From a virus (lineage: Duplodnaviria > Caudoviricetes): a stretch of 64,000 bases of DNA. Both the position numbers and the translations under genes were made by a program. The notes beneath the pieces are model-generated. The model ran no database searches. It had not been told where the DNA came from and worked only from the letters and a program-made list of their open reading frames with translations. Positions 4,260-30,954 of this stretch are shown piece by piece (within the stretch, counting starts at the first letter, position 1; every line of letters starts with the position of its first letter). The DNA lies in the IMG/VR virus record IMGVR_UViG_2890351070_000001, positions 1 through 64,000 of that record. One strand, 5' to 3'.

Positions 4260-4709
4260 ATGAGTGATCCGGATCTAAAGCAGCAGCTGACCGAACGACA
4301 AAAGCGATTTGTCGAAGAATATCTGATTGATTTTAACGCCACGCAAGCTGCAATTCGGGCAGGATATAGCCCAAATTCAGTCAAGCAAAGCGCCAGCCGG
4401 ACGCTGAAAAATCCTTTGGTGCAAGATGCCATTGAACATGCGAAATCTGTGCGTTCCCAACGTTTGCAGGTAGATGCTGATTACGTTCTTAAGGGGGCCG
4501 TGGAGTTGTTTGAGCGATGTATGCAACGCAGCCCGGTTGCGGATGGGGATGGTGAATACAAGTTTCAGCATACGGGGGCGGGAAAGGCATTAGAGATTAT
4601 CGGGCGTCATGTATCGGTTCAGGCCTTTAAGGAAAAGGTTGAAATGTCGATTGAAAATGAACTGGTTGATCGCCTGATGCGCGGTCGTAAGAGGTTGAAT
4701 GATAAATAA
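4260..4709 (+). CDS. terS: Terminase small subunit
   Basis: LTERQKRFVEEYLIDFNATQAAIRAGYS is the Terminase_2 N-terminus. Confidence 0.92.
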   Translation: MSDPDLKQQLTERQKRFVEEYLIDFNATQAAIRAGYSPNSVKQSASRTLKNPLVQDAIEHAKSVRSQRLQVDADYVLKGAVELFERCMQRSPVADGDGEYKFQHTGAGKALEIIGRHVSVQAFKEKVEMSIENELVDRLMRGRKRLNDK

Positions 4710-4771
4710 CTTTACATAAGTCACTTTATCTTCTCGTCACTATTCTTTCCATTTGATTTTAGAGGTATCTG

Positions 4772-6235
4772 ATGACCCATGGGGTTGATTTGGATCTTGC
4801 CGAGGATTGCGCGCAGTTCTATGCAAATCCGCTTGGCTTTGTTCTGTGGGCCTTTGATTGGGGACAGGGCGAATTGGCCGACTTTAAAGGCCCGCGCGAC
4901 TGGCAACTTGCCTATCTGGAAGATCTGGGCGGGCAAATCAGAGAACGCGGATTTGATGGTCTTCACCCGGTTGCCCCCATGGATATGGCAACAGCTTCCG
5001 GGCACGGTATTGGTAAATCAGCCATGTCTGCGTGGCTTATTCTCTTTATTATGTCAACGCGGCCCTTTGCCAAAGGGGTGGTAACATCGAATACCAGTGA
5101 TCAGCTGCGTACCAAAACCTGGGCCGAGCTGGGGAAGTGGCACAAACGCTGTCTGACCGGACACTGGTTTAGCTATAGCGCAAGCAAGGGCAACATGGCG
5201 CTGGTCCATAAACGTCACCCCGAAAGCTGGCGCTGTGATGCGCAGACCTGTCGCGAGGAAAATTCTGAAAGCTTTGCTGGTCTTCATGCTGCAAATTCGA
5301 CCCCCTTTTATCTGTTTGATGAAGCATCAGCCGTACCGGATAAAATCTGGGAAGTTTCGGATGGCGGCCTGACCGATGGCGAGCCCATGCGCTTTGTCTT
5401 TGGCAATCCGACCAGAAACTCGGGGCGTTTTTTTGAGTGCTTTAATCGGTTACGCCACCGCTGGAAAACCAGACAGATTGACAGTCGAACGGTGGATGGA
5501 ACAAACCAAAACCTGATGCAACAATGGGTTGAGGACTATGGCGAAGACAGTGACTTTGTCCGCGTGCGTGTCCGTGGTGTTTTCCCAAGGGCTGGATCAA
5601 CGCAGTTTATCAGTGGTGCGGTTGTAGAAGCGGCCCGAAACCGTCAGCTTTCAGCACAGCCACAAGATCCCCTTGTCATTGGTGTGGACGTTGCCCGTTT
5701 TGGTGATGATCAATCGGTGATTTTGATACGACAGGGTCGTAAGGTGCTAGAGATCAAAAAATACCGGGTGGATACCATGGCATTGGTAGGGTATGTGGTT
5801 GAGGTCATACGCCAATACCGTCCAGATGGTGTGCTGGTTGATGGTGTCGGTGTTGGTGGTGGCGTTGTCGATCGCCTGAAGCAATTGGGCCACGACTGTA
5901 TCGATGTGAATGCCGGTGCCAGAGCGCAGGACCTGAAGACCTACATGAACAAGCGCGCAGAGATGTGGGGCAAGATGCGCGATTGGCTCAAGGGCGGTGA
6001 TATCCCAAGTGATGATCAGGAGCTACAAACAGACCTCACAGCCATTGAATACGGCTTTGATGCCAAGAACAGGCTACAGCTTGAGCGCAAGGAAGATATG
6101 AAGAAGCGAGGGCTACATTCGCCTGATGTGGCGGATGCATTGGCGCTGACCTTTGCCGAAGATATTATGAAGTGGTCAGAGTATATTGATGGCGATATGG
6201 AAGTGGCCATCTCGAATTATGAGCCGGGGGGGTGA
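4772..6235 (+). CDS. terL: Terminase large subunit
   Basis: Walker A SGHGIGKS, Walker B LFDEAS, GNPTR, nuclease GVDVARFGDD and SPDVADAL. Confidence 0.95.
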   Translation: MTHGVDLDLAEDCAQFYANPLGFVLWAFDWGQGELADFKGPRDWQLAYLEDLGGQIRERGFDGLHPVAPMDMATASGHGIGKSAMSAWLILFIMSTRPFAKGVVTSNTSDQLRTKTWAELGKWHKRCLTGHWFSYSASKGNMALVHKRHPESWRCDAQTCREENSESFAGLHAANSTPFYLFDEASAVPDKIWEVSDGGLTDGEPMRFVFGNPTRNSGRFFECFNRLRHRWKTRQIDSRTVDGTNQNLMQQWVEDYGEDSDFVRVRVRGVFPRAGSTQFISGAVVEAARNRQLSAQPQDPLVIGVDVARFGDDQSVILIRQGRKVLEIKKYRVDTMALVGYVVEVIRQYRPDGVLVDGVGVGGGVVDRLKQLGHDCIDVNAGARAQDLKTYMNKRAEMWGKMRDWLKGGDIPSDDQELQTDLTAIEYGFDAKNRLQLERKEDMKKRGLHSPDVADALALTFAEDIMKWSEYIDGDMEVAISNYEPGG

Positions 6236-6256
6236 AATATTTTTCTCGGGTATTTC

Positions 6257-6646
6257 CTAATCGAACGCCTCAACCTGTTGTTGTGTGACGGTGTTGGGCT
6301 GTTTTTTGAGTTTAAAGTAGAGCCAGAAGCAGTCGAAGAGGAGAAACAGCGGGGTTATCCATATGAAAATTACAGTGCCTATAAATAATAATTTTAACGC
6401 TTGTGTATGCCTCGAACTTACTACCGTCTCCATCATGCCAATAGGGTTAGTAAAAATTTGTACGCTAACGATGTATAGTTGTTCTGAAGGAACATAAACT
6501 ATTAGTTCAGCTATAAAGTAGATGAATAAGCCACCAACCACACTCATAGCCAATGCACTTTTCTTGTATCCCAAATACCACCGATGCCCACCGAAGACAC
6601 CAGTGAACAGCCAGAGTAAGTAAGCTATGGGGAGGGACTTATTCAT
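6257..6646 (-). CDS. TM2/NINE-domain membrane protein
   Basis: KS..IAYLLWLFTGVFGGHRWYLG motif; paralog at 51667-52056. Confidence 0.85.
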   Translation of the reverse strand: MNKSLPIAYLLWLFTGVFGGHRWYLGYKKSALAMSVVGGLFIYFIAELIVYVPSEQLYIVSVQIFTNPIGMMETVVSSRHTQALKLLFIGTVIFIWITPLFLLFDCFWLYFKLKKQPNTVTQQQVEAFD

Positions 6647-7313
6647 GGGGAGCGGATGCTTTTTTTATCAGTTCAGAACGGATATCAGCAAGCTGGTCAA
6701 CTTGGAGGATTTCTCGGATGTTCTTTCGAATCAAGACAAAAGGATTTTCGTCCTCATTCTCCGAAACCATGCCTTTAAAAGAGTCATGCACTTTTGCGGT
6801 TACTTCTTGATAAATATCTCTGTCTTTCTCGTTTCTTCGAAGATTTTTTGCTAGGCCAGCGTTGGCTCCTAGTTCTCTTATTTCCTTTTCAAAAGGCTTT
6901 AACTTACTGGTAATGCTAGTTGAAATCCATGGCGTAAATTCTAGTCGAAGCCTGGATAGGGCATTTGCTTTTTCAAGTATATGTTCTGTTGGGCCATGTC
7001 TCCAGATATCATGTTCAATCTTATTAACTAAAATTAGATATTTTTCTCTAAACTCGACGTGTTTATCAAAGATTGTGTTAGCCATATGTGATGTTGCACC
7101 TATGGAAAATATCTGATCATTCTTTTGTAGTTGAAGTTGGTCGAGCCGACGCATGTCATCTCGAAATAATTTTAATAACCCTGCAAGAAGAAAGCCGAAA
7201 AATGAAAATGTTTGTATTGGTAAGTTATAGCCATCAAGAATAAAAAAATGAAAGAATAGGTTGGTGCCAATAAATATGACAATTAACCCCCACCAGAAGC
7301 GATCCAGTCCCAT
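6639..7313 (-). CDS. Hypothetical membrane-anchored protein (accessory cargo)
   Basis: 224 aa ORF, two N-terminal hydrophobic segments, AT-rich. Confidence 0.65.
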   Translation of the reverse strand: MGLDRFWWGLIVIFIGTNLFFHFFILDGYNLPIQTFSFFGFLLAGLLKLFRDDMRRLDQLQLQKNDQIFSIGATSHMANTIFDKHVEFREKYLILVNKIEHDIWRHGPTEHILEKANALSRLRLEFTPWISTSITSKLKPFEKEIRELGANAGLAKNLRRNEKDRDIYQEVTAKVHDSFKGMVSENEDENPFVLIRKNIREILQVDQLADIRSELIKKASAPHE

Positions 7314-7567
7314 AAAGTTTTTCCTATAAGTGGTATGAAAAATTCAATCTGTTAAAACAAAGAAGGAAGAGGGCGAGGGTTAGTCTTCTTGATTTAGCGC
7401 AATTATGTCAATTATTTTATCGTGTTCAATCTATGGTTATGGTCTTGCGCGGCTTTTTAATGTGGCTGTTCGCTATCTATAGAGATTTCATGATGAAGTG
7501 AATGATTGCTTTGTGACACATATAATTTCCCTGTTTGGTGATCTTTGTTCGAAACAGGAGTTATTTT

Positions 7568-7990
7568 ATGTCGACACTTAAAATGTTAATCGTTGCTTTG
7601 TTTGGGGTTTTCTTATCAACAGCTGTTTTGGCAGGTAATGGTAAAGCGGTATCATCCCATTGGATGGCAACAGGGGAATCTGCGACCAGCTTATGGGTGA
7701 GTAATATTACTGAACATGATTTGAAGGTAAATATTGTTTTCTATGATGAGCATGGAACTGCGTTAAGCCCTGATTTGTATTACAATTTTCAAAACTCCAA
7801 TACCGAGATTGCTGCTGGTGATACAGGTTATGTAACCATTCACAATGATTCCTATGGTTATGCTGTGATTACCTGGGAAAATAAAGGTGTTGATGATGAT
7901 CCTTTTGGTTTGGTTGCGCATTCTCACCGTGGTGGTGGATCTGTTCCTTGGCGTGCGTCTATTCTAATTAATAATGGTCAGCCGTTTTGA
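7568..7990 (+). CDS. Secreted hypothetical protein
   Basis: AGGAG RBS, signal peptide ending AVLA, followed by terminator hairpin. Confidence 0.7.
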   Translation: MSTLKMLIVALFGVFLSTAVLAGNGKAVSSHWMATGESATSLWVSNITEHDLKVNIVFYDEHGTALSPDLYYNFQNSNTEIAAGDTGYVTIHNDSYGYAVITWENKGVDDDPFGLVAHSHRGGGSVPWRASILINNGQPF

Positions 7991-8025
7991 TTTTCACTGC
8001 TGGATTAAACGAAATTTTTGAGCAG

Positions 8026-8055
8026 AATTAAGGCCCTTTGGGGCCTTAATTTTAT
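8026..8055 (+). terminator. Intrinsic terminator
   Basis: aattaaggccc/gggccttaatt inverted repeat plus T-tract. Confidence 0.7.
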
Positions 8056-8190
8056 TGTTTCAGATAAAGATTACTTTGTATAAAAGCAACAGCGAGTTAA
8101 AGCGCTTTGCTTGGTTTGTGTTTTATATGAACCTTTTGGATAATATCGCCGACTAACTGTATAAATCTTTAGTTATTGTTGGAGGATAAA

Positions 8191-8373
8191 ATGGGGTTCG
8201 TGCTTTTTCTTGTTGGTCTTGTGGGGATCGCGTTTGGGATGTGGGGGATGTATACGGATGCTGGCCGGGTCCGGTTTGATGAAATGGATGGCCTTTACCC
8301 GATGTTCAGTGCTTTAGCTGGCGGGGTTTTGATTATTATTTCTATTATTGTGATTTATTACCGTAGCCGTTGA
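8191..8373 (+). CDS. Small two-TM membrane protein
   Basis: GGAGG RBS, two hydrophobic helices. Confidence 0.65.
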   Translation: MGFVLFLVGLVGIAFGMWGMYTDAGRVRFDEMDGLYPMFSALAGGVLIIISIIVIYYRSR

Positions 8374-8418
8374 ACGCATCCAGATAAAATTGATCAGGTA
8401 AAACTGATCAAAATCGCT

Positions 8419-8685
8419 TTAAAACTTATCAAACCCTCGGGCGAGAAAAAACAAGCAGGGCAGTGCGGCGTATACAGTGATAAGCAAAAGCCAGAATTGG
8501 GTGAGTTGGTAGTACAAACCAGGCTGGTTGATAAAGAGGAAATAGCAAATTCCACCAGCATATAAAACGGTTATGATTATGCTCAATGTCGGGGATATGC
8601 GTTCACTGACCCATACCGACATGCACAGGTGCGGGAAGAGGAGAAGTAAAAAGAGGTCTAACAGCCTTTGTTTGAAAATCATCAA
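8419..8685 (-). CDS. Small membrane protein
   Basis: 88 aa, about three hydrophobic segments. Confidence 0.5.
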   Translation of the reverse strand: MMIFKQRLLDLFLLLLFPHLCMSVWVSERISPTLSIIITVLYAGGICYFLFINQPGLYYQLTQFWLLLITVYAALPCLFFLARGFDKF

Positions 8686-9126
8686 GCTGCCCCGGAAATT
8701 TGTAAGCTTTTAATCTGCATTAACACTTCATTTGATTAGTCGTATTTATAGTCGTCAAATCTAACGATTTCTCATCGCTGTTTCATTGTTCGTGTAGTTC
8801 TATCTTCACTTCTCTCTTTAAGTCTTGAGCAAAAGCTAACTTTAATGTGCTGATGAATAGTGATTGGGCGCATATCTCAAGTCAATATACGATGATGTGA
8901 TCATTGTTTTAAAAAATGATTGAAAAATAACCTAATATGATTAGGATTGTTGTGACTGATTGATTGTACCGAACGCCGCAAACCTTGCTGAGGGGCGCGG
9001 CGTTTTGGTATCTGGCCTCAAAAATTTTCAGCAGATGTTTGGAATTAAATCTCGCTGATCCCAGAATAAGTATTCAAATTACCTTGGGTGATCAAAAAAT
9101 AGTTCATTTTGCGAATGAATGCTTAG

Positions 9127-9300
9127 CTAATCGTAATGACTACTACGCATACTTCCCAACGCATAGCCTATAGTTGAGAAAACCAAGAGTAGAATTATCG
9201 TTGCTAGACCAAAAGTACCACCGATGAAAGTAATACTAAACCAGCTTAATACCAGAGCAACTATAGTGCCGATGAGTGCGCCGAGGAAACTATTTTTCAT
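9127..9300 (-). CDS. Small membrane protein (57 aa, not in ORF track)
   Basis: Hand translation MKNSFLGALIGTIVALVLSWFSITFIGGTFGLATIILLLVFSTIGYALGSMRSSHYD*. Confidence 0.5.
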   Translation of the reverse strand: MKNSFLGALIGTIVALVLSWFSITFIGGTFGLATIILLLVFSTIGYALGSMRSSHYD

Positions 9301-9461
9301 TGGAATTTACCGTAGTGATGTATCCTTATGGTTGTGTTGATTTTGACGATGTTTGTGCCTGTCGTCAATGTTTTGTTGTGAGAAATTTATGACTTGTAAC
9401 GAAGTATGCGTACTAATCTTATCATGCTTATGCTTTGAAATGATCAGTCGCGCTCAATAGC

Positions 9462-10037
9462 TCAGAGAATGTCACGGTATTCGTCGTACAGCCCAAGAGG
9501 TTTAAACATGCACTGTAATGGATCATATTCGGATGCTGGTCGGAAGTTGGTGCTTTTCGTTTGCAGAGCTTTTTGATCTTCTGTTTGTAACGGAATTCCT
9601 TGTGCCATCTTATTGAAAGCTTTGCGATGGGCTGTTGTCATCAGATTATCCCATGTATCTTTGCTAGTACAGGCACACATTTCTGATTGTTCAGCTGGTT
9701 TTAAATTTATAAGCCTGTCGACTGCTTTTTTCATGAAGTCTTTTTGTTTTCTGGTGATCTGAGGATGATCAATGAATTGATTGAATTCCTGGATAATACT
9801 ATCTTTTGTTAAGTTGGTATCAGCCTGTTTCATACATGTCATATAGCCGATAGACATGCCGGGTTGATCAAATAAACTATTGACTTGTTCGAGCTCTTTT
9901 AGAATTTCTGGCGGGTATTTTGTAAATTCGCCATTTCTCATTTGACGTTCAAGTTCTTTGGCATCAATTGATTGAGCGTAAGATATATTACTTATTATCA
10001 AGCTTAGGGCGAAAAATATCGGGGCAAGAAATTGCAT
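9462..10037 (-). CDS. Secreted Cys-containing protein, paralog of 10120-10782
   Basis: Signal peptide ending SYA; motifs shared with its neighbour. Confidence 0.7.
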   Translation of the reverse strand: MQFLAPIFFALSLIISNISYAQSIDAKELERQMRNGEFTKYPPEILKELEQVNSLFDQPGMSIGYMTCMKQADTNLTKDSIIQEFNQFIDHPQITRKQKDFMKKAVDRLINLKPAEQSEMCACTSKDTWDNLMTTAHRKAFNKMAQGIPLQTEDQKALQTKSTNFRPASEYDPLQCMFKPLGLYDEYRDIL

Positions 10038-10119
10038 GAGTTAATCCTGTCAGGTCAAATATTGTACTTTGGTCATGAAGAAGTTATTTGTATTTGCAAA
10101 AAATCTGGAGGTGTTGGGA

Positions 10120-10782
10120 TTAGTAAAGTCGAAACCGCGTTTTAAGTTCGCTGTATAGTCCCATAGGTACAAGAGTACATTTTACTGATTTGGGTATTTT
10201 CCCAGAAGGTTTTGTTGCCGTTGGTGTGTGCGCGAGATCGAGCACTTCTTCTGGAGTTGCATCCACACCTAAAGCAAGTTTGTTAAACGTTTGTTTCTGA
10301 TTATCGGGAAAATCTTTCCAAGTGTAATCGGCCATACAGGCCGCGGTTTTGGAAGACTCTTCTGGTGTCATATTGATAATGCGGTCTTTTAGTTTTTCAA
10401 AAAACACAACATGTGAATGCGGCGCACCTGGTTTGGATTTCAGGTCGTTAAATAGCTTTGCAGCTTTTTGTCGTTCTGCTGGATCAGTGATGTCCTGATA
10501 ATTATAGCGATAGATGACGGCTTTGCCGGGCGTATCGACCAGTTTTCTATCTAATGCCAGAGTATCAAGAGTTTTTTGATCGTACTGCTTAAAATCACCA
10601 GATGTAAGCGCGTGTTTCAGTTCAAAGATATTGGTAATGCTCTTTGCCATCTGCAAGGGATAATGTCGCGAATAGTTATATTCAGATTTTGTCTGTGTAG
10701 AGGCTTTGTTTTTATGTGATGGGGATGTCGTCTGACAGGCTGTGACGACAAGCAATAAAACCATCGATGTAATGATACGCAT
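10120..10782 (-). CDS. Lipoprotein, paralog of 9462-10037
   Basis: Lipobox VVTAC after MRIIT start. Confidence 0.7.
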   Translation of the reverse strand: MRIITSMVLLLVVTACQTTSPSHKNKASTQTKSEYNYSRHYPLQMAKSITNIFELKHALTSGDFKQYDQKTLDTLALDRKLVDTPGKAVIYRYNYQDITDPAERQKAAKLFNDLKSKPGAPHSHVVFFEKLKDRIINMTPEESSKTAACMADYTWKDFPDNQKQTFNKLALGVDATPEEVLDLAHTPTATKPSGKIPKSVKCTLVPMGLYSELKTRFRLY

Positions 10783-11057
10783 TTTGAGAGCTAACCATAA
10801 TGGAAAATGATGTATAGGATTCAATTATTTGTAACGGTAGAACGTTAATTCCCAGAGTTCAAATGATTTTCATCTATATTTTCGAGCAGATAAAAGAGGA
10901 TCATTATTAGAAAAGATAGCATAGTTCTATGATACTTTTCGTTCTCCTGATCCTGCAGGTAATATCTCTATGGGAAAATGCGCCTTACGATTAAAAAGCT
11001 CCGCTGATGTGGGGCTTTTTTGTATTGGATAGCGATCAAGTTGAAAAGGAAATCAGA

Positions 11058-12275: not shown

Positions 12276-12416
12276 GATTTATCTGCGTTATACTTTGTTT
12301 GAGTATAGGGGTAGCGGTATATTCGTTCTTGGATAAATAGGTTCTTTGAATGTTACAATTGATCGACTGCCTCGTCGGTTTATCGAAATTAGAAAATTAT
12401 GACGGACAAGTCTTGA

Positions 12417-12445
12417 ACCCCTCGTATTTGATACGAGGGGTTTTG
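12417..12445 (+). terminator. Intrinsic terminator upstream of portal
   Basis: cccctcgtat/atacgagggg plus T-tract. Confidence 0.7.
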
Positions 12446-14156: not shown

Positions 14157-14160
14157 GGAT

Positions 14161-21296: not shown

Positions 21297-24200
21297 ATGC
21301 GAAACATTCCTGATAATCAGGTATCGACCACAGCTCGATTTGAACTTCCTGAAGAAAACAGCGCCACAATTGAAAATGGCATTTCCCACCTTTCCAGTAC
21401 CGTCGTGTTGCGTGAAACCCAAGAAAATAAAGAACAGAAAACATACCGGACGGAAAATGCTGATGATGGTGGACTGTTGGATGATATAAAATCCGGGATA
21501 GATACTGTATCAGAATACTTGCACAACACTTTGCAGGATGTCGATCTCCATGACGGCATTTCTGAGCTTACCACAAATATCTATCGGGGAGTTGTTGATC
21601 TAATCAATTTTGAAAATCTTTCCCCAACAGAAGTCCGGAAAAAAGTAGATCAGGAATATGGCGGAATAAAAGCCGAACTTTCTACTCGTCATAAAAAGGA
21701 GGCTCCAGAACAAGCACACAAATTTGACGAAAAACTGGATAAAAAGATCAGTGCGGATAAACAGTATATTGAAAGTTTGCAGCAAAGTGCTTACCAGAAA
21801 AAAGCTTTTGGTACGATTGATCGTCTAGCTAAGAAATATGGTCATGGTGTTACGCAAAGCCCGGAAACCTTGACGGATGCTATGATTTCTATTGAGGATA
21901 CTGTTAATAAGCTGGCTCCCGGAATTGGGCGGGATAGGGCCGTTACCAAAATAAAAGAAACGCGGGGAGTATTGTTTAACAACGCATTGCAGGGATATAC
22001 GGATCAAAAAAATTATATCGCAATTCAATCTCTTTTGGATGGCATTGATCCGGTGACGAATGCAAGGTTGAACAGTGGCGATTATATCACAGCAGAAGAG
22101 AGAGACTATTTCCAAAACCTGGCTGGCAAAGGATTAAGGCGTGAGGCGGCATACCAATTACTGGATGAAGTTGAGGCCCAGGTTATATCAACGGATGAGT
22201 TGTTGGATGCTTTGCAAAATCATCCCGATAGCAGTCTTGGTCAGGAAGCACTGTCCCTTTGGCAAGACAGAAAGCGAATTGAAAAAAAGGTAAACAGAGA
22301 CCGGGCCAAAAAACAACGCTATTCAGTATGGCAAAATATTACAGAGACTAACGGTAATGTTGATGTCACTGATTTACCTTTGGATCTATCCGATGAAGAT
22401 CGGGATCTATTCATTTCCTATCTGAATAATAAAGATGATCTGAACATGGGATTGTATGATCCCAAAGGCCCGGGCGCCAAGATTACGGACGTGCTCCTTT
22501 ATGAAATAAAGAAGTTGCAGATAGCGAACCCGGACATTTTCGCAGATCGGGATTTATCTGGTTATTTCAGAGAGTTATCCCCCCAGAAAATTGCCCGGGT
22601 CATCGCAATGCAAGAAAACGGACTTGATCCCAAAGATGCCGCCAGTTTCAAAATGCGTGAAAGAGAGGCCCTCAGGGCTTGGAAACAAGTGACGGGCCGT
22701 AATGGTTATGACGAACCGGACCGACAGGAGTTTATTAACTTCAGCATTCGTTTCGGCGAAGAAATTGACGACTTTATTACGCTTGAAGAAAGACCTGCAA
22801 GCGGTGGGGATATCAACAAAATCGCCAACAGGATGATTGAAAGTGATGAGATGATTTCACTAGAGAACGTGGATGAAGCACTTAGCGATGGAGAACAAGA
22901 GTTCTTTGAAAATGAAAGAGATTTAAATGTTGATTTTCCAGTAACTGTATCAAATGAAGAAGAATTTAACAATTTAATTGAAAAGCAGGTTGAACTTCCA
23001 GAAGGAGTGACAGCAACTTTTGTAGAAGATGAACAGACAGCTCTTGATGATAAGCATACAGGAAAACCAAGCTACAATGTTATCTTTCACGATGCAGATG
23101 GAAATCTTATAGATGGCCCTGCAACTATGAAACGTCTTCCTGGAGAGACTAACGAACAAAGCCATCTTAGGTATGTGCCGGGAGAGGGGTTTTTGAAAGA
23201 TCAACCAAGAAACAAAAAACAATATAATCTGGCGAGTACGGCTGCCAGGGATTACATCTACGGAATTCGTGGACGACATCCAGTAAATGAAGATGAAGAA
23301 AAAGAGATCTTCCTGTTAGCTGAAAATATCTACGGCATTATCCGGGAAGAGTACGGTGATGAGAATCATATCTCACAAGGTGAAATCTATACGATGGTTG
23401 ATGACCTTGCTGCTGAAGGTAAAGCTCCTCGATTAAATGGATATAAACCACCAACTACACAATTAGGGCGAGATTTAGAGAAATACTACAAAGAAACGAA
23501 TGTATTTGGACGGTTTAGAAATGGGTTTATGTATGGCGCAAGAGGGATTATGGCCTCAGGTAATATTTCAATTGGGTTGAATCATCTTGAGCAGAGTGAA
23601 CGTTTCGGAAATTGGGCGGATAGAAAGCAAAAACAACTCGAAGCAGAAGAAGTTGCAATACGTAAAAAAGCAGAACATCTAGGCGTTGATTTTAAGGATG
23701 TCGAGCATTTACTTTCACCAACTCGTATGAAGGTTAAAGAATATAGAAGATCTGAACAAGAGTATAGAGAAAACTTTATTGGCTTTATTACCAGAGGCGC
23801 AGAGTTTAAAGAGTTAATGGAGCAGGGGCGTCGAAATCCAGTTATAGTGGCAATGGAAAAAGTAGAAAATCCAGACGAATTTTGGGAGTTAATGTCTTAT
23901 GATCCTATGGGTGTTGTTGGACAATATTTTCTAGAGAATTTGGCTAGCACTGCGGTAGATATGGCTAGTGGTGTCGTCGGAGGCCCCGCTGCCAGTGCTG
24001 CAGTTTCAGGCTCATTAGAGCACTCTAAGGTTCTAATGGAAAAATTAGAAGAATACGGTGCAGATTTGAAGGACCCCAAAAGCGTCCAAGAAACAATGAC
24101 GGAACATGGCGACGAAATAAGAAAAGATGCGAGAGTACAAGCATTTGTTGCTGGTGCTGCGAGTGTTATGACGGGGTGGATGGTTAACTCTGCAGTTAAA

Positions 24201-24341
24201 AAGCCGATTGTTCAAAAGGCATTAGAACCAGGTGGCAAGGTCGTCGAAGTAATAGGAGAAAATACTGTTTCTGCTGTTGGGAATGTTTTTTTGACACCAT
24301 CTTCTAAATCTGTTGTTCGAGATGTGATTAGAGTACCTTAA
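21297..24341 (+). CDS. Large internal virion/DNA-ejection protein (putative)
   Basis: About 1014 aa helical protein between nozzle and fibre genes; M..IP start; GAGG RBS. Confidence 0.65.
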   Translation: MRNIPDNQVSTTARFELPEENSATIENGISHLSSTVVLRETQENKEQKTYRTENADDGGLLDDIKSGIDTVSEYLHNTLQDVDLHDGISELTTNIYRGVVDLINFENLSPTEVRKKVDQEYGGIKAELSTRHKKEAPEQAHKFDEKLDKKISADKQYIESLQQSAYQKKAFGTIDRLAKKYGHGVTQSPETLTDAMISIEDTVNKLAPGIGRDRAVTKIKETRGVLFNNALQGYTDQKNYIAIQSLLDGIDPVTNARLNSGDYITAEERDYFQNLAGKGLRREAAYQLLDEVEAQVISTDELLDALQNHPDSSLGQEALSLWQDRKRIEKKVNRDRAKKQRYSVWQNITETNGNVDVTDLPLDLSDEDRDLFISYLNNKDDLNMGLYDPKGPGAKITDVLLYEIKKLQIANPDIFADRDLSGYFRELSPQKIARVIAMQENGLDPKDAASFKMREREALRAWKQVTGRNGYDEPDRQEFINFSIRFGEEIDDFITLEERPASGGDINKIANRMIESDEMISLENVDEALSDGEQEFFENERDLNVDFPVTVSNEEEFNNLIEKQVELPEGVTATFVEDEQTALDDKHTGKPSYNVIFHDADGNLIDGPATMKRLPGETNEQSHLRYVPGEGFLKDQPRNKKQYNLASTAARDYIYGIRGRHPVNEDEEKEIFLLAENIYGIIREEYGDENHISQGEIYTMVDDLAAEGKAPRLNGYKPPTTQLGRDLEKYYKETNVFGRFRNGFMYGARGIMASGNISIGLNHLEQSERFGNWADRKQKQLEAEEVAIRKKAEHLGVDFKDVEHLLSPTRMKVKEYRRSEQEYRENFIGFITRGAEFKELMEQGRRNPVIVAMEKVENPDEFWELMSYDPMGVVGQYFLENLASTAVDMASGVVGGPAASAAVSGSLEHSKVLMEKLEEYGADLKDPKSVQETMTEHGDEIRKDARVQAFVAGAASVMTGWMVNSAVKKPIVQKALEPGGKVVEVIGENTVSAVGNVFLTPSSKSVVRDVIRVP

Positions 24342-24410
24342 AACGTTTTTTGAGATGAATTGTTCACCCCTTATCCTCCATCTATAATCATTCTTGGATA
24401 AACAGGTCTC

Positions 24411-24440
24411 AACCTCTGCTTTTTAGCAGAGGTTTTTTTA
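24411..24440 (+). terminator. Intrinsic terminator before tail fibre genes
   Basis: aacctctgct/agcagaggtt plus T-tract. Confidence 0.7.
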
Positions 24441-24455
24441 TTGGGAAAATCTGAC

Positions 24456-25364
24456 ATGACTATTTCTGCGACACCGCGGAGGGCCTCTTACACCGGGGAT
24501 GGCTCTACGGTAACTTTTGCTGTGCCCTTTAAGTTTCTTGCCGATAACCACTTGAAGGTTGTGGTGACAATGCCAAGCGGAGCTGAAACTCTTGTGACAC
24601 CTTCGCAAATAAGTGGTGCGGGAACCGAAAGTGGTGGCTCTGTAACACTTTCTTTTGCACCTGTTACGGGGGATACGGTCACAGTTCTGGGAGCGACACC
24701 GTTGGAGCAGCAAACTGATCTCGCGGTATCAGATGGTATGCCCGCCGACGTTATTGAAACCGCTGTTGATCTGTTGACCATTCAGAACCAGGAACAGGAC
24801 GTACAGATTGGTCGGGCAATTAAGTTACCCATTGCCTATTCAGGGGATGAGTTGCAATTCCCGGCACCGGTGCCCAATGAAGTGCCCTATTATGATGAAA
24901 ATGGCAAACTGGTGATGTCATCAGTTGGCTTTAGCACCTTGATGTCGACGGTTCAGGATTTGATTAATCTCGCCAATGACACTGGTCAGGCACATACCCA
25001 TGATTTTTCGGTTTTGACCGGAACAGATCAGGTTCTTTTGGCGAATTTATCCCGAATTTTGGGGGTGAGTTACCCGACCGCTGTTAATTCATATGGCAAT
25101 ACGACAGATAATCCTGTGATTGATCTGACCAAAACCTTCCTCACATCAATGACCAATAATGGCAATGGGGTCATAACGGCGGATAAAGCCAATAACAACT
25201 CTGTTGATGTCTGGTTGACCAATGGACCGACAGCAGGGGCATTGGATATTTCCAGCTTTGATTATGTGAAGGGATCATTTGGTGTCGGGGACGGTGTGAT
25301 CACCATCATGCATATGTCTACCGTCAACGGCATTGCCCGCGTTGCGTTAGAGGTGTTGGAATGA
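24456..25364 (+). CDS. Tail fibre anchor protein (T7 gp17 N-terminal-like)
   Basis: YTGDGSTVTFAVPFKF and TP....D...D.LT...QE motifs. Confidence 0.8.
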   Translation: MTISATPRRASYTGDGSTVTFAVPFKFLADNHLKVVVTMPSGAETLVTPSQISGAGTESGGSVTLSFAPVTGDTVTVLGATPLEQQTDLAVSDGMPADVIETAVDLLTIQNQEQDVQIGRAIKLPIAYSGDELQFPAPVPNEVPYYDENGKLVMSSVGFSTLMSTVQDLINLANDTGQAHTHDFSVLTGTDQVLLANLSRILGVSYPTAVNSYGNTTDNPVIDLTKTFLTSMTNNGNGVITADKANNNSVDVWLTNGPTAGALDISSFDYVKGSFGVGDGVITIMHMSTVNGIARVALEVLE

Positions 25365-28300
25365 GAGCTCTTTATTCAGGTACTGACGGCTGGAGCAATG
25401 ATCTTGAGGCTTCTCTTGCTCTCTCAGCCGGGAAGAAGCTGACCTACACCCCTACGGTCACAGGAAATCGTCGTCAGTTTACGATTATGTGTAATGTTCG
25501 TCGGGTGAAACATGGGGCCTCACAGCATTTGTTTTCTGCGGGTACTGCTGCACAGACTAAAGGGTTTCAGATAAGGTTCGACGCTGATGATAAACTCGCG
25601 GTAGTTGATCATTTTTCTGGAGGAATGTCACTAGGCACAAAACAACTTTTCAGAGATACAGAATGGATGTTTGTTGGGGTTTCAGTGGATACTGTGGCCC
25701 GAACTCTTAAACTCGTCGTTAACGACCAAGAGGTAGATGACTTCGCTTCGTTCCGTATTCCTATCGCGAACTCGCAACTTGCTGTAAACGACAGCACGTC
25801 CAGTATGCGGATTGGCGCGGACACTAATGGCGTAGCAAACGTCGAAGCCAACATATCCGATTTCGTTCTCCTTGATGGCGAAGTCCTGACGCCGCAGGAA
25901 ATAATCAATTACCGAACACAGAACATCCCCTTTGGTAATAACGTCATCACTACGACAAAGAAGTTCACAACTGAGGGACAGCAAGAGCGGTTCTTGGCAT
26001 TACACAGGAATGATCCAGCGAGTAATACAACCAAGATTCTTGATGAGGGCAAGTATGTTGAACGATCAACATCATCGTGGGACACCGTCCACTCTGACGT
26101 ATTGCCAAGTACAGGTAAATATCAGATTGAATTTGGATTGGGTGCGGATGCATTTAATGCCGTAGTAGGTATTGGTCCTTCTGAAAATACAAGCCCAAGA
26201 GGTGGGCTAACCACGAATACATTTGGTAATTTTACGGGCATTACATTTAGTGGATCTTCTCTAAAATCCTTTAACAATGCCAGCACAACAATTGACCCAC
26301 CAGAATGGGGTGCCAATGTTACACATGATATGTTCTCAATGTATGTTGATATGGATGCCAGAACGGCAATCCTTGCGATTAACGGGATAGAATTACCGAC
26401 AGTTCATTCCATAACTTCTGGCGATGTCCGCTACTACATAGACTTGCACAGTTTAAATCCCGGTGCGTCAGTCAACTTTGGTCAGGCCAATTACAAATAC
26501 CCTAAAGCTGGTTATGGTCCCCTTAAAGAACCCGCAAAGTCTGACCTCAAGCGGTGTAAACTTCGTCCTAATGCATCGGGCCTTTTGACTTCCAGCCCGT
26601 CAAATGAATTTAAATCTCCGGGCAATTCCTGGTATTCGGCGGTATCTGATTTCGTCTGTCCTGCTGATGGTCGCAAATTCTATGCAGAAGTAACTATAGA
26701 TGTATTAGGTAACATTATGTTTGGGGCCTCCAAAGTAACCCCAAATGTTAATGAAACCTACCTTGGGCATTATGGAGATAGTGCCGGATACTATTGGCAT
26801 GGCAGCAATACAGGCTACTACCATGACAATATCTCAGTAAGTGCCGATCCTGCTGTTTTGTCAGCCACACAGTCTGGTGATTTTGTGCAGGTGGCTATTG
26901 ATCCAAACATAGGTGATATGTGGGTCGGACGTAATGATGTGTGGGTTGGTGATCCTGCTGCAGGTACTGAGGCCCTTTATAATTTAGGCACCGACGGAAT
27001 GAGATTTATGGTGTCTGCTAGTCAGACAGTAGCGCGAAGCACAATCAACTTCGGAGACCGTCCTTGGCAAGGATCTCCTCCAACGGGTTTTGTTGGCCCC
27101 GCCAGTGTAAATTTTGACACGCTTCGTAAATCTGGCGACGCAGTAAACTACGAGTACGGCCCGAACGGTACGCAGCTATTGTTTGAAGATGGGGGTAACC
27201 TTGGGAAATCCTCTGCCGGTAATCTTTTGCTGTGGAGCCTGACAGGAATTACTTCAGATGATCAGATAACAGACACGCCGGGTGATCCTTATGCAGTCTT
27301 GAATTCGATTGATATGCAGGGGCTTAAAATAACCTCGGGAGGTTTGGGTGTTACAGGTACAGCTTCAACATCATATGGTGGAGTTAAAGCTACTCTTCCT
27401 CTGATAGAGATCGGCTCCTATTGGGAAGTTGAATCCACATCATCGAATACCGACGGGTTTGTGTGCATTGCTCATGTCGAAACAGCACCAGTATATTCGT
27501 CTTCGATCGTTTTCGGTAACGATGTTGGCAAGGATGACTTCTATTATAGAACTTACAATGGAGCTCTAAGAAGGAATGGTGGGGCTTCTCCTGCAATATC
27601 GGATTTAGCTTTAGGCGTGGGAGATCATGCTTGTATGGCTTACAAAGATGGTAATCTTTGGGTAGGCACTATCAAGAGTGGCATTCAGTCTTGGTATAAC
27701 GGTGGAGATCCTGCAACAGGTGCGAACCCCACAGAAACTGGTTTTACTGGAGTTTTGTATCCTGCTGCTAACTGTACCAGTAATAATGGTCTTGTGTTTA
27801 ATTTCGGGCAGCAAGTCTTTGAAGGTACTATTCCTGCTGGCTTCAAGGAACTCAAAAGTTCCAACCGGGAAACACCCAAGTATCACGGGCGGGATAAGTT
27901 TGATGTGAACCTACGAACCGGAACAGGTGCAGATGCTACAATTCTCACCCCGTTCGATAAGACGGGTTTGAGTTGGACTAAGAACAGAAATGCCTCGAAC
28001 GAACACATCTTACAAGACAGACTTCGCGGGGCAGGAAAAGAGTTGTACTCAAGCCTAGCAAGTGCCGAAGCAACTAGAGCAGATAGCGTTAAAGCCTTCA
28101 ACGATGGGCAGATTCTTATAGGTGATCGTAACGGGGTGAATAACAACGGCAATAACTTTGTCGATTGGATATTCGGTAATGATGGAACAGAGGTCACCAA
28201 CAATGACGGTACAATCCCTTCTCAGGTTGTAGCCGATAGTTCTGGTTATATGTCTATCCTTGAGCACATAGGGGACGGGCAAACAACCTCTACCGTTGGG

Positions 28301-28903
28301 CATGGGATGCCAGATGTTCCAGACCTCATCATCTCTAAAAATTTGGACACAGCACAGGATTGGGTTGTCCACACTGCTGTCATGACGACAGGATGGATAG
28401 GCTCTGATAGCTGGTTAAAACTTCATACATCCTCAGCTCAAGTAACCGGGACACTTTTAGGCACAGAACCAACCGATAAAGTTTTTCAGCCTACTAATAG
28501 TAGGAATAACGGGAACGGACAAAGGCATCTTCACTTGTGTTTTAAATCGGTCCCGGGGCTTTCCAAAGTCTTTAGCTATAAAGGTAATGGTTCCAATACT
28601 GGTCCCTATATTGATTGCGGCTTCAAGCCTAGATGGATCATATACAAACGGATTAGTAGCACGTCTCAGTGGACCATTCACGATACTGAGCGCGATCAAT
28701 TTAATCCCACAAGGGCAATCCTTGAAGCGAGTACATCTTCTGCCGAGAATGTTTTAACGACACTGGACATGGATATTTTGTCTGATGGTTTCAAGCTTAG
28801 AACTAGCCATCAAAATCATAATTATAGTGGTCATACCTACATCGGCCTCGCAATCGCAGATGTTGCTGGTGGCGGCAATCTTCCAGCTATCTTGGGGAAT
28901 TAA
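25361..28903 (+). CDS. Receptor-binding protein with LamG/SPRY-like repeats
   Basis: Repeated GK.Y.E/G..W.G/.NFG units; C-terminal Y.GNG...G..I.CGF.P. Confidence 0.75.
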   Translation: MRALYSGTDGWSNDLEASLALSAGKKLTYTPTVTGNRRQFTIMCNVRRVKHGASQHLFSAGTAAQTKGFQIRFDADDKLAVVDHFSGGMSLGTKQLFRDTEWMFVGVSVDTVARTLKLVVNDQEVDDFASFRIPIANSQLAVNDSTSSMRIGADTNGVANVEANISDFVLLDGEVLTPQEIINYRTQNIPFGNNVITTTKKFTTEGQQERFLALHRNDPASNTTKILDEGKYVERSTSSWDTVHSDVLPSTGKYQIEFGLGADAFNAVVGIGPSENTSPRGGLTTNTFGNFTGITFSGSSLKSFNNASTTIDPPEWGANVTHDMFSMYVDMDARTAILAINGIELPTVHSITSGDVRYYIDLHSLNPGASVNFGQANYKYPKAGYGPLKEPAKSDLKRCKLRPNASGLLTSSPSNEFKSPGNSWYSAVSDFVCPADGRKFYAEVTIDVLGNIMFGASKVTPNVNETYLGHYGDSAGYYWHGSNTGYYHDNISVSADPAVLSATQSGDFVQVAIDPNIGDMWVGRNDVWVGDPAAGTEALYNLGTDGMRFMVSASQTVARSTINFGDRPWQGSPPTGFVGPASVNFDTLRKSGDAVNYEYGPNGTQLLFEDGGNLGKSSAGNLLLWSLTGITSDDQITDTPGDPYAVLNSIDMQGLKITSGGLGVTGTASTSYGGVKATLPLIEIGSYWEVESTSSNTDGFVCIAHVETAPVYSSSIVFGNDVGKDDFYYRTYNGALRRNGGASPAISDLALGVGDHACMAYKDGNLWVGTIKSGIQSWYNGGDPATGANPTETGFTGVLYPAANCTSNNGLVFNFGQQVFEGTIPAGFKELKSSNRETPKYHGRDKFDVNLRTGTGADATILTPFDKTGLSWTKNRNASNEHILQDRLRGAGKELYSSLASAEATRADSVKAFNDGQILIGDRNGVNNNGNNFVDWIFGNDGTEVTNNDGTIPSQVVADSSGYMSILEHIGDGQTTSTVGHGMPDVPDLIISKNLDTAQDWVVHTAVMTTGWIGSDSWLKLHTSSAQVTGTLLGTEPTDKVFQPTNSRNNGNGQRHLHLCFKSVPGLSKVFSYKGNGSNTGPYIDCGFKPRWIIYKRISSTSQWTIHDTERDQFNPTRAILEASTSSAENVLTTLDMDILSDGFKLRTSHQNHNYSGHTYIGLAIADVAGGGNLPAILGN

Positions 28904-28905
28904 TC

Positions 28906-29457
28906 ATGAAATATGCAATTGAAAAAAATGGGACCCTTGTTTCTCAAATAAGCGGTTGGACACTCGGACTAGCAAAGAAATGTAACCTTATAGGGAACAA
29001 ACAGGCTCCTCAAGATTTGCCATTTGATTTGGGGGATGGCGCGACGCTTAGGGTTGTTCGGACTGTTAAAGCTAGTCCAACACCTTATCAATATGTTGTT
29101 GATGATGGTGCATTGGTCGGGAATGAATGGGTTATCTCTCAAACAGCAAAGGACAAACCTACAGATCAAATTAGCACTCAAAAACGATTAGATATTAATA
29201 TTGAAGCTGCTCGTCGGATCGAAAACATCGCACCGATCTGGAAACAGATTAGGGGGAGTGAACGTGCCATTGAATTACTTGAGATAAAAAGCACGAGGGA
29301 GTGGGGTGAAGATGAGATTGTTGAGGCTGATTATCTTCGAGCAAAACGTAAAGAAATTGAGGCCATTCGCTCAAGGTCAAATGCTTTGATGCTTCTACCA
29401 GATGAAGAATTGATAAAAGTCGATGTTCTTGATGATATGACATGGCAAACATCATGA
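28906..29457 (+). CDS. Tail fibre-associated/assembly protein
   Basis: Position; EAARRI...AP.WKQ motif. Confidence 0.6.
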   Translation: MKYAIEKNGTLVSQISGWTLGLAKKCNLIGNKQAPQDLPFDLGDGATLRVVRTVKASPTPYQYVVDDGALVGNEWVISQTAKDKPTDQISTQKRLDINIEAARRIENIAPIWKQIRGSERAIELLEIKSTREWGEDEIVEADYLRAKRKEIEAIRSRSNALMLLPDEELIKVDVLDDMTWQTS

Positions 29458-29483
29458 TTGATACAGTGCTAAGAGGAGAAAAC

Positions 29484-29654
29484 ATGGATAAATTTATCGG
29501 TGTTACAGCTGTATCAACTCCTTTATGGCTTCATTATTTTAACACTGGTATCGCGATCTGTGTTGGTCTTGGAGGCGTGTTGTTACTTGGCTTCAGGATA
29601 GCAAAGGCCAGACAAGATTACTTAAAGGCGAAAGAGGAGAGGGGGAAGTCATGA
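29484..29654 (+). CDS. Putative holin
   Basis: GAGGAG RBS; small TM protein with basic tail, upstream of endolysin. Confidence 0.6.
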   Translation: MDKFIGVTAVSTPLWLHYFNTGIAICVGLGGVLLLGFRIAKARQDYLKAKEERGKS

Positions 29655-30022
29655 CAAAATTGAATTGGCCCGACTATCCCAACTTCTCGGCCTCAGAGTT
29701 TGCTTGCAAGTGTGGCTGTGGGCGTGCTGATATGAAGCCTGAGTTTATGGAAAAGCTGCAAGAGCTTCGTAACCAAGTAGGACCTCTGGAAATCACAAGT
29801 GGTTTTCGTTGCAAGAACCATCCCGTTGAGAAGAACAAAAAACGACCCGGCGCACATTCAGCAGGACTTGCTGCGGATATCATCCCGCTTAAGGCAAGGC
29901 GTTACGAACTACTCATCACCATTAGCGACATGCGTTTTAGGGGCATTGGGGTTGCTAAATCTTTCATTCACATAGACGAGGGTCACCCATACGCATATCG
30001 CCCCGCGTCCTGGAGTTATTAG
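29651..30022 (+). CDS. Endolysin, peptidase M15 family
   Basis: NFSASEFACKCGCG, ITSGFRC, H..GLAADI, FIHID. Confidence 0.9.
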   Translation: MTKLNWPDYPNFSASEFACKCGCGRADMKPEFMEKLQELRNQVGPLEITSGFRCKNHPVEKNKKRPGAHSAGLAADIIPLKARRYELLITISDMRFRGIGVAKSFIHIDEGHPYAYRPASWSY

Positions 30023-30036
30023 GGAAGCTATTCACC

Positions 30037-30354
30037 ATGAAACACATACTGATAACAGTCGCTCTTGTAGCGGCTTTTTTTATGTCTGCCTGCACAACAC
30101 CGGGCGGCAATCGTCTGAGTGCTGAACAGCAGGTGCAGATTACCTGCGAAGGCATTATCTCAACGGTGCGGGTCCTTGCCGGTTATCGTGCTGCCGGTGA
30201 ACTGTCAAAGGAAACGGTAAAGACTGTTACTGATTTGATGCCATCTACTGTGAAGCTCTGCTCTGGCGAGGTGACAGATTATCAATCTGCCCTGACCACC
30301 TTGCAGGAAACGGCTTTTGTTCTTCTGACTGTAAAGAAAGGTGTTGAATCATGA
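30037..30354 (+). CDS. Lysis-module lipoprotein
   Basis: Lipobox MSAC. Confidence 0.65.
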   Translation: MKHILITVALVAAFFMSACTTPGGNRLSAEQQVQITCEGIISTVRVLAGYRAAGELSKETVKTVTDLMPSTVKLCSGEVTDYQSALTTLQETAFVLLTVKKGVES

Positions 30355-30539
30355 ACCCGGCAACAATCGCAACAGTAAACGCGCTTATTGAAATCGGTGT
30401 GTTTGCATTTAAATCAATCAAGGCCGTTCAAAACGGTGATAAAACGCCAGAAGAGATCCGCGCTGAGTGGCCTGCTATTTCTGCAAAGTTAGAGGATGCC
30501 TGGACAGCTTGGGAGGCGGCAGGAAAAACCAATGGCTGA
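30351..30539 (+). CDS. Small phage protein
   Basis: ATGA-coupled to the upstream gene. Confidence 0.55.
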   Translation: MNPATIATVNALIEIGVFAFKSIKAVQNGDKTPEEIRAEWPAISAKLEDAWTAWEAAGKTNG

Positions 30540-30954
30540 TGGCTATGAGTTCACACCTGAATATGATCTAGCTCAGATTAAAGCATCTCGTCCGAGTGGC
30601 GGGGTGCTGGTCTGGGTATCGCCCGATGATCCGGATAATCCTTTTACGGCAGCATGCCCCCACCAGATCACAGGACCAAGAGGGATGTATGTTGTTGTTC
30701 CGGGTGGTTTCAACTACGACGGAGCAAGTGTTCCTCGTCCGTTGTGGTGGTTTATCCCCCGGGCTGATGCTCGGTTCTTTCGAGCAGCAACTTTACACGA
30801 TTTGCTATACGGAACCCACGAAGGTTCACGAGCTGTAGCAGATGCCATAATGCGTATTGTCGCGGAACAAGATCGTATGCCGTGGCTCAAACGTTGGGTT
30901 GCTTATATTGCTGTTAGGCTGGGCGGGCAGGCTGCTTGGTTGAATGATGGCTAA
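30532..30954 (+). CDS. DUF1353 family protein
   Basis: VPGGFNYDGASVPR, AATLHDLLY, AVRLGG. Confidence 0.85.
   Translation: MADGYEFTPEYDLAQIKASRPSGGVLVWVSPDDPDNPFTAACPHQITGPRGMYVVVPGGFNYDGASVPRPLWWFIPRADARFFRAATLHDLLYGTHEGSRAVADAIMRIVAEQDRMPWLKRWVAYIAVRLGGQAAWLNDG

Follow-up and report, generated by a model that had tools for sequence, protein, structure and literature searches.

Previous work has set out the definition of gene transfer agents (GTAs) as viriforms, and that account recognizes three GTA groups with an established genetic basis (Kogay et al. 2022; PMC9662315). The subject here is a set of podovirus-type packaging, head, tail and lysis genes, called cluster 1, at positions 4260-30954 of a 64-kb stretch of Kiloniella DNA (the window), which is the first 64 kb of the 74,911-bp virus record IMGVR_UViG_2890351070_000001. 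To our knowledge, none of the three genetically defined GTA groups is built from podovirus genes, and a literature search (full text, supplements excluded) returned no description of a Kiloniella GTA or prophage cluster, nor of a GTA made of podovirus genes. The RcGTA small terminase, gp1, is described as lacking the helix-turn-helix (HTH) of the N-terminal region, a loss proposed as a mark of GTA-type TerS (Sherlock et al. 2019; PMC6854486), and described GTAs package fragments of about 5-15 kb (PMC9632790). For the Kiloniellales, Table 3 of PMC6821227 gives 0 RcGTA-like clusters in 5 genomes. Lateral transduction has been described for pac-type prophages, those of Staphylococcus aureus and Salmonella phages (PMC8575950), and the general concept of "grounded" domesticated prophages is also established (PMC6379469).

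Cluster 1 is a domesticated, vertically inherited particle cluster, and a GTA-like element of new and independent derivation is what it strongly suggests as a candidate. To the full reading, in which the cluster likely still makes DNA-filled tailed particles, packaged in situ from a pac site, we give a probability of about 50%. An earlier note, made from the letters of the window alone, had proposed a podovirus-derived GTA or domesticated particle. The "domesticated" part of that proposal passes every sequence-level test that the note named, while the GTA part stays a candidate.

Conservation, selection and descent of cluster 1

Gene identities were taken from PHROG and Pfam profile scans of the open reading frames (ORFs) of the window. 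The scans agree with the earlier note that all the packaging, head, tail, fibre and lysis genes are open, and in cluster 1 the packaging, head, tail and lysis set of an epsilon15/BPP-1-type podovirus is intact. The note had also seen no integrase, repressor or replication genes and no att repeat. The same scans gave zero matches to integrase, repressor or replication families within 4260-30954, and a 12-mer search of 32600-32950 against the whole contig did not find a tRNA-derived repeat. Because the left neighbour, a gene for a TopoIII-RecD2-like fusion protein, is truncated by the contig end, a lack of early genes could not be established from the window by itself; the related genomes do establish it.

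A TerL scan with one genome per species returned 33 loci, of which 12 showed 82-96% identity and 21 were more distant. All 12 close loci belong to Kiloniella species or to metagenome-assembled genomes (MAGs) placed by GTDB in Kiloniella, and terL was present in 12 of 13 genus genomes, the single miss being a 1.5-Mb MAG. In the synteny check proposed in the earlier note, the TopoIII-RecD2 gene, terS and terL have the same arrangement in 12 of 12 Kiloniella-type loci. When 53-75 kb around the locus were compared in ten Kiloniella genomes, nine contained the cluster complete, colinear and in open frames, with terS at one end and the DUF1353 gene at the other. In each of these nine genomes the matches to thirteen core genes (terS, terL, portal, the 93-aa gene, scaffold, capsid, the phrog_427 gene, tubular A, tubular B, fibre adaptor, endolysin, lipoprotein and the DUF1353 gene) cover about 88-100% of gene length. 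Amino-acid identities across the nine were 95-100% for capsid and 84-99% for both portal and tubular B; terL was 82-96% identical in 12 genomes. Capsids of at least 96% identity were found in 10 of 46 family genomes, all ten within the genus. The variable parts of the cluster, at about 35-47% identity taken together, are the internal-protein block, with internal virion proteins 35-95% identical across species, and the long fibre protein of 1180 aa, which is only about 40-47% identical over most of its length; the fibre adaptor is conserved at 64-95%. Among the tblastn matches were 15 high-scoring segment pairs with in-frame stops, all of them inside the first 50 residues of over-extended ORF calls. 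At the ten loci the cluster occupies 26.7-40.3 kb, including a slot of 5.5-15.8 kb between terL and portal whose content differs between species.

The flanks of the cluster are host DNA. Left of the TopoIII-RecD2 gene, K. majae has 14 kb of genes for sensor kinases, periplasmic binding proteins, a GGDEF-EAL protein and the like, all of host type; they are syntenic in the closest species and partly so in others. On the right side, tRNA-Ser(GCU) was found at 6 of the 10 loci scanned, and three others stop at a contig edge. Scans of five genomes for each family showed neither a tyrosine nor a serine recombinase within the cluster or next to it: PF00589 had zero matches on the cluster-bearing contig in 5 of 5 genomes, and the nearest PF00239 matches on the cluster contigs lay 137-185 kb away. 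Given these host-gene flanks and the lack of a recombinase, the integrase, lysogeny and replication half is absent everywhere and not merely past the edge of the window.

Selection was measured as dN/dS by the Nei-Gojobori method in the five closest species, for which dS is unsaturated (0.5-1.2); between clades synonymous sites are saturated. Against these five, terL gave 0.03-0.05, portal 0.01-0.02, capsid 0.01, tubular B 0.02 and the lysis genes 0.04-0.13. The full ranges were 0.03-0.06 (terL), 0.01-0.05 (portal) and 0.01-0.03 (capsid), so that the dN/dS check named in the earlier note came out at 0.01-0.06 for these genes and tubular B. The flanking host genes are similar, the neighbouring TopoIII-RecD2 and host genes having 0.05-0.10 at dS 0.9-1.4. 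In a neutral simulation at 0.05 substitutions/site, at least 9 of 17 cluster genes were broken in 200 of 200 runs. The combined dN of terL, portal, capsid and tubular B followed that of the unlinked rpoB gene with r = 0.96 (28 pairs from 8 genomes, the pairs not being independent), a signal that is essentially the same three clades in both gene sets. The GC content at third codon positions (GC3) of the cluster also follows the host: in K. laminariae core GC3 is 0.68-0.70 and rpoB GC3 is 0.55, and in the other species the values are 0.48-0.53 and 0.37-0.43, respectively. Together, these comparisons indicate long residence and vertical descent of cluster 1 since the genus ancestor.

To the right of cluster 1 lies a second element with the same structural genes, prophage 2. 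A tree of terL, portal, capsid and the phrog_427 gene, built with a careful search and rooted on a genome of the same family from outside the genus (G012), places the ten chromosomal copies in one clade with prophage 2 as sister (support 89/95). The suggestion that cluster 1 sits beside a relative of its ancestor is thus borne out by the tree. Cluster 1 and prophage 2 are 74-87% identical in nucleotide sequence in terL, portal, capsid, tubular B and the lysis genes, the lysis ends being at 87%, and dN/dS between the two is 0.05-0.09 for terL, portal, capsid and tubular B, in agreement with the predicted purifying selection on both copies. The idea that the phage evolves faster was rejected, the prophage 2 branch of 0.13 being within the chromosomal root-to-tip range of about 0.10-0.21. 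The outgroup module in G012 (contig C2, about 165-225 kb; L066-L068) is distant, at 50% identity for terL and 68% for capsid, and is taken to be a prophage because CI-like and replication-like ORFs lie upstream; the 636-kb contig that carries it is without a tyrosine recombinase, and a genome-wide look for a serine recombinase found none. This prophage also has a cargo slot between terL and portal. The slots of cluster 1, prophage 2 and G012 hold mostly genes for secreted or membrane proteins, on the opposite strand and of low GC.

Vertical descent has been accompanied by local recombination. In sliding windows, positions 17194-17764 and 62388-62958 (570 bp) and positions 17946-18234 and 63140-63428 (288 bp) are 100% identical between cluster 1 and prophage 2, and around these tracts tubular A/B identity is 60-85%. 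The K. majae allele at the two tracts is 99.7% the same as that of cluster 1; therefore the tracts are native to the chromosomal lineage, and prophage 2 took them from the cluster. They reflect recent gene conversion in the direction from cluster to phage. A second patch comes from another species. The window genome has terL and left cargo genes (4700-8000) that are nearest to a MAG, G006, at 95-96% amino-acid identity, and everything from 9462 onward, together with the TopoIII-RecD2 gene, is nearest to K. majae at 95-100% (portal onward at 99-100%). Against K. majae, dS is 0.6 for terS/terL and 0.06 for portal/capsid. The terL/left-cargo region is an imported patch of a few kb, pointing to cluster exchange between species.

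Proposed packaging mode and rival explanations

The small terminase bears on how the cluster might package DNA. PF03592 aligns with TerS across profile positions 1-137 of 141, and the N-terminal HTH segment of the protein is conserved in all 11 chromosomal copies, with recognition helices that are clade-specific. The recognition helix of prophage 2 TerS differs from the chromosomal ones; both peptides that the earlier note had quoted as differing are present. The cluster is 26.7-40.3 kb long, prophage 2 is 41 kb and related phages are 40.5-44.5 kb; no cluster exceeds these lengths, and by analogy a cluster could fit in one headful of about 41-44 kb.

A conserved promoter-like element lies 5' of terS, with boxes GATGAATTG and TATAAAAT-like. 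All 11 copies can be aligned over it, including those with a different upstream gene or with inserted genes. It has 1 match in the window, the expected number being 0.01, and is missing upstream of terS2, the prophage 2 gene. A search of five genomes with the motif returned only the cluster site in three (G001, G002 and G003), and the two misses have a variant -10-like box. The sigma-70 consensus had no match in 3900-4400. The element is a candidate promoter under host control. In a coral metatranscriptome (X8), 21 short contigs, 90-100% identical, cover 20 of 30 bins of 11001-31000 and derive from the cluster or from that of a close relative. Two polyA RNA libraries (X16 and X17) yielded 0 reads on it, a result that does not bear on expression.

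The proposed history is that the virion-and-lysis module of an epsilon15/BPP-1-type temperate podovirus would have been fixed in the Kiloniella ancestor, between the TopoIII-RecD2-like gene and tRNA-Ser(GCU), after loss of the phage integrase, lysogeny and replication half. Because about 13 core genes have stayed intact and slow through the genus radiation, the cluster most likely still builds tailed, DNA-filled particles. The retained DNA-binding region of TerS and a capsid of the 41-44 kb class make pac-started headful packaging in situ the likeliest mode; this is favoured over RcGTA-style packaging of random small fragments because the TerS DNA-binding domain is kept and the cluster fits a headful. 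Packaging would start on the chromosome itself, without excision, at a pac site that TerS recognises, and continue by headfuls, the first taking in the cluster with its cargo slot and later ones the chromosome to the right. Particles, released by the cluster's own holin and endolysin, would carry the cluster, its cargo and neighbouring chromosome segments into other Kiloniella cells, where delivered segments would persist only via homologous recombination.

A bolder proposal, which we put forward tentatively and rate at somewhat less than an even chance, is that cluster 1 is a fourth independently domesticated, genetically definable GTA and the first from a podovirus, that is, a self-transducing, non-replicating viriform with a sequence-specific TerS and in-situ headful packaging. 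Its particle series of about 42 kb would carry its own genes, a dedicated cargo slot and downstream chromosome; alleles and cargo would spread by homologous recombination, and virion segments would be traded with free sister phages.

Several observations weigh against a domesticated, particle-making cluster. A pac site was not found, third-position conservation in terS/terL peaking unconvincingly at 0.68-0.70 against a mean of 0.48-0.53, and the combination of an HTH-bearing TerS and a cluster of one headful departs from the defining traits of described GTAs. The coral contigs could be carried-over DNA and are thus a weak hint of expression, not proof of transcription. No late-gene activator is visible in cluster 1 in the PHROG and Pfam scans, no regulator of the cluster was identified, and the AraC gene on its right is absent in several Kiloniella species. 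Support for a single chromosomal clade is only moderate (89/95), and a concatenation that includes tubular B puts prophage 2 inside the radiation, where a quick tree joins it to the K. majae group as sister with SH-aLRT 99, a placement that we attribute to the conversion tracts. Codon usage (relative synonymous codon usage and GC3) fails to separate cluster 1 from prophage 2. Finally, the earlier note had held that absence or decay in close relatives would tell against it. Intactness in nine of ten genomes leaves the reading standing, but G007 shows partial loss: on a 2.3-Mb contig it keeps the TopoIII-RecD2 gene, terS and an open terL, having lost portal through lysis, and terL is followed by an AraC remnant and tRNA-Ser (C14, about 800-806 kb; L052-L054). 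The remaining cluster genes were not found anywhere in the G007 genome, so that at least one lineage can do without the cluster.

The same conservation and selection would be expected if the particle had been domesticated for another purpose, as a PBSX-like killer particle or bacteriocin or as an altruistic lysis device, with packaged DNA incidental. PBSX is a conserved chromosomal defective phage kept by selection. In cluster 1 the complete lysis cassette is kept, and an arms race over targets would fit the most variable proteins, the receptor-binding ones (about 40-47%), as well as recipient recognition does. Terminase, portal and full-size capsid, however, are needless for a pure killing device and are among the most conserved proteins; a podovirus is without the contractile sheath for puncturing cells; and the recombination patches at the locus show DNA movement. 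We consider this explanation unlikely.

We find it similarly improbable that cluster 1 is a helper-dependent defective prophage, a reservoir of structural genes or a decoy, that stays silent until a related phage infects or is induced and is kept because, at that point, it would provide virion parts, swap them or disturb packaging. The 100%-identical conversion tracts and the lack of a visible late-gene activator fit such a role, and related temperate phages do circulate in the genus. Integrase-bearing prophages of G004 (C26, 23-62 kb) and G005 (C6, 38-77 kb; C11, 72-106 kb) have early-region and lysis patches in common with prophage 2, at 73-88% nucleotide identity, in company with other head genes and without a matching capsid, which shows a pool of mosaic temperate phages in Kiloniella. 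A helper would usually be absent, however, since only the window genome of 13 showed a phage with this structural module; a second copy was not seen in the other 12 genus genomes. The conserved promoter-like element stands upstream of terS and not of terS2, the recognition helices of the two TerS proteins differ, and exclusion or decoy activity would not need about 13 intact virion genes at dN/dS 0.01-0.06.

The left neighbour raises a further explanation, that cluster 1 belongs to an autonomous unconventional phage or element which obtains replication and mobility from the TopoIII-RecD2-like gene or from unrecognised genes. The earlier note had placed terS about 240 bp from the host topB. The spacing stands, at 242 bp, the two genes being divergently oriented across it in the K. 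majae group; the "topB" is a genus-restricted TopoIII-RecD2-like fusion resembling plasmid TopB. Its ORF runs to more than 1338 aa before the contig ends within it. Homologues of full length are confined to G012 and the 12 genus genomes with terL, a phyletic distribution that is the same as that of the cluster, and the topoisomerase part is of plasmid type, nearest to TopB of alphaproteobacterial plasmids (50-53% identity), with an active-site region perfectly conserved among the orthologues. Still, the location is fixed and the cluster co-diverges with rpoB; four genomes have 2.3-3.4 kb of unrelated genes between the fusion gene and terS; the P-loop of the RecD2-like part is degenerate, with a residue other than S/T following the lysine in 10 of 11 copies, and Walker B is variable; and no recombinase lies nearby. 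The fusion gene was found near terL in 0 of 21 more distant phage loci, and in G012 it is among host genes on a contig different from that of the related prophage, findings on which its origin as part of the ancestral phage was also rejected. An autonomous element is thus very unlikely. The weakest explanation, an inert prophage deletion remnant or assembly artefact, could draw on the contig end inside the left neighbour and on the partial loss in one genome but is already contradicted, and hardly tenable, given the same arrangement in more than ten independent assemblies, low dN/dS, frames intact at saturated synonymous divergence between clades, and the breakage of most genes in the neutral simulation.

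Neighbouring elements and feature map

The earlier note had placed an autonomous sibling prophage with the same gene order about 2 kb to the right of the cluster. Prophage 2 answers to that description: it is inserted at the 3' end of tRNA-Ser, is complete-looking and repeats the structural gene order of cluster 1, with its own terL-portal cargo slot at 50809-57800. At the left junction, homology to K. majae ends 9 nt past tRNA-Ser (32747). The right junction was not located, and the K. majae sequence following tRNA-Ser is not in the record.

In cluster 1, about 6.3 kb of non-phage, low-GC cargo separates terL from portal. Encoded in the slot are a TM2-domain protein, unknown proteins and a pair of paralogues that look secreted or lipoprotein-like, and the PHROG and Pfam scans of 6257-10824 gave zero phage family matches besides TM2 / phrog_8793. 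The two genes that follow (316 aa and 105 aa) are without a family match in these scans, and their positional equivalents are present in all cluster copies. The internal-protein block was assigned also by its position, which matches that of relatives, and the true start of tubular A, about 17111, was inferred from orthologues.

Features of the window and of the adjoining part of the record
Feature	Positions	Strand	Matches and remarks
TopoIII-RecD2-like fusion	1-4017	-	Toprim + Topoisom_bac, HHH_RecD2, AAA_30, SH3_13 (Pfam)
Promoter-like element	4140-4174	+	GATGA(A/G)TTG, ~18 nt, T(A/T)xAA(A/G)AT; 5' of terS
terS, small terminase subunit	4260-4709	+	PF03592 Terminase_2, phrog_51
terL, large terminase subunit	4772-6235	+	phrog_2, phrog_5902
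Variable low-GC cargo slot	6257-10824		GC 0.39-0.41
Two fast-evolving genes (316 aa, 105 aa)	11007-12275	+	just 5' of portal
Portal, T7 / epsilon15 type	12495-14156	+	phrog_332, E 1e-109
Small head protein (93 aa), then scaffold/protease-like protein (269 aa; 14435-15244)	14161-15244	+	phrog_3742, phrog_458
Major capsid protein	15247-16266	+	phrog_212
Head-associated protein, conserved	16349-16771	+	phrog_427
Tail tubular A (192 aa) and tubular B (17668-19452)	17111-19452	+	phrog_394, phrog_376
Tracts 100% identical to prophage 2	17194-18234	+	within tubular A/B
Internal virion / ejection-type proteins (~147, 193, 113, 1040 aa)	19457-24341	+	phrog_418 for the first
Fibre adaptor (307 aa), 1180-aa fibre / receptor-binding protein (DUF7483, PF24299), 183-aa protein	24441-29457	+	phrog_1640, phrog_19943, phrog_24898
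Lysis block	29442-30954	+	70-aa membrane holin-like ORF; M15 endolysin 29651-30022; lipoprotein 30037-30354; 62-aa ORF; DUF1353 protein 30496-30954
Right flank	31056-32738		ABM-like ORF; AraC/ExsA-type regulator 31440-32351 (-); tRNA-Ser(GCU) 32648-32738
Prophage 2	32748 to ~73811 (~41 kb, past window end)	+	integrase, RecT, exonuclease, CI-like, Cro-like, methyltransferase, DnaD/O-like replication gene, then terS 48892, terL 49349, portal 57873

Copies of the cluster also turn up elsewhere. Two IMG/VR provirus records (L082, 33.5 kb; L083, 35.9 kb) are copies of the chromosomal cluster, with identities that fit K. litopenaei-like and K. spongiae-like copies. Because IMG/VR already files them as proviruses, such elements inflate prophage counts. 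Several marine, aquaculture and biofilm metagenomes hold parts of the cluster. A 75-kb contig with the full cluster (L007) comes from a MAG titled Halopseudomonas aestusnigri (G010); the title is probably wrong, since the genome is assigned to the same genus as K. majae and has an rpoB that clusters with that of K. antarctica.

Comparison with known systems

Cluster 1 is an independently domesticated GTA-like podovirus cluster with a packaging logic that is probably different from that of known GTAs. It would be a new independent virus domestication, genus-wide and maintained by selection, in an order without RcGTA, and the autonomous sister phage beside it in one genome makes a rare before-and-after pair. 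The cluster could test a GTA-like role with a sequence-specific terminase and a full-size head, that is, obligate lateral transduction, and could also test the terL-portal slot as a privileged site of cargo transfer.

Measured against the viriform definition, cluster 1 has a structural set without replication, integration or lysogeny genes and shows vertical transmission with host co-evolution, local recombination patches notwithstanding. A viriform particle holds at best part of its own genes; here the cluster is 26.7-40.3 kb and the relatives' genomes, from which the head size is inferred, are 40.5-44.5 kb. The small terminase of cluster 1 is not of the proposed GTA type, the HTH region being kept. 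In what is described of RcGTA there are clear likenesses: a phage-derived head, tail and packaging set at a fixed site in an alphaproteobacterium, vertically inherited under purifying selection and without replication or integration genes. Cluster 1 is nevertheless not a member of the RcGTA-like Rhodogtaviriformidae, its PHROG matches being a T7-type portal, tubular A/B and internal virion proteins. It is unrelated in origin, of podovirus type and without a tape measure or tail tube, and it differs further from the RcGTA as described in having lysis genes inside the cluster, a TerS with HTH and a capsid of the 41-44 kb class.

The virion modules of epsilon15/phiV10/BPP-1-like podoviruses and of the Vibrio phages MZH0603, PS25B.1 and 1.021.A-C are homologous to that of cluster 1 and in the same order: terS, terL, portal, scaffold, capsid, tubular A/B, internal proteins, fibre and lysis. 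Capsid identity is 69% to the Vibrio phages, which have genomes of 43-44 kb, and 44% to phiV10 and epsilon15-like phages. Phages of the epsilon15 type, however, have complete genomes of 39-44 kb with replication and regulatory halves, and cluster 1 is without that half. Between terL and portal, Vibrio phage MZH0603 has two ORFs (82 and 343 aa) in 1.4 kb, in contrast to the 5.5-15.8 kb of the Kiloniella clusters. The marks of a functional temperate epsilon15/BPP-1-like prophage, namely integrase and att, repressor/Cro and replication genes, are missing from cluster 1 and its flanks, and the corresponding genes are present in prophage 2. Prophage 2 resembles cluster 1 in gene order, cargo slot and a similar lysis end, as expected of a sister lineage, and differs in having an integrase, RecT/exonuclease, CI/Cro, a replication gene, insertion at tRNA-Ser and another TerS helix. 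PBSX is of myovirus type and has retained a repressor and a late regulator of its own; cluster 1, by contrast, shows no repressor or late regulator in the PHROG and Pfam scans.

As described, lateral transduction offers the closest parallel in packaging: a TerS-directed start at pac in an unexcised element, followed by headfuls into the chromosome, is what is predicted for cluster 1, which has a TerL and a TerS with HTH but in which synonymous-site conservation did not locate a pac site. The prophages that carry out lateral transduction are complete, replicate and excise later, whereas cluster 1 is without an excision or replication module, and in-situ packaging would therefore be its only possible mode. 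In sum, cluster 1 would resemble a GTA in role and lateral transduction in mechanism.

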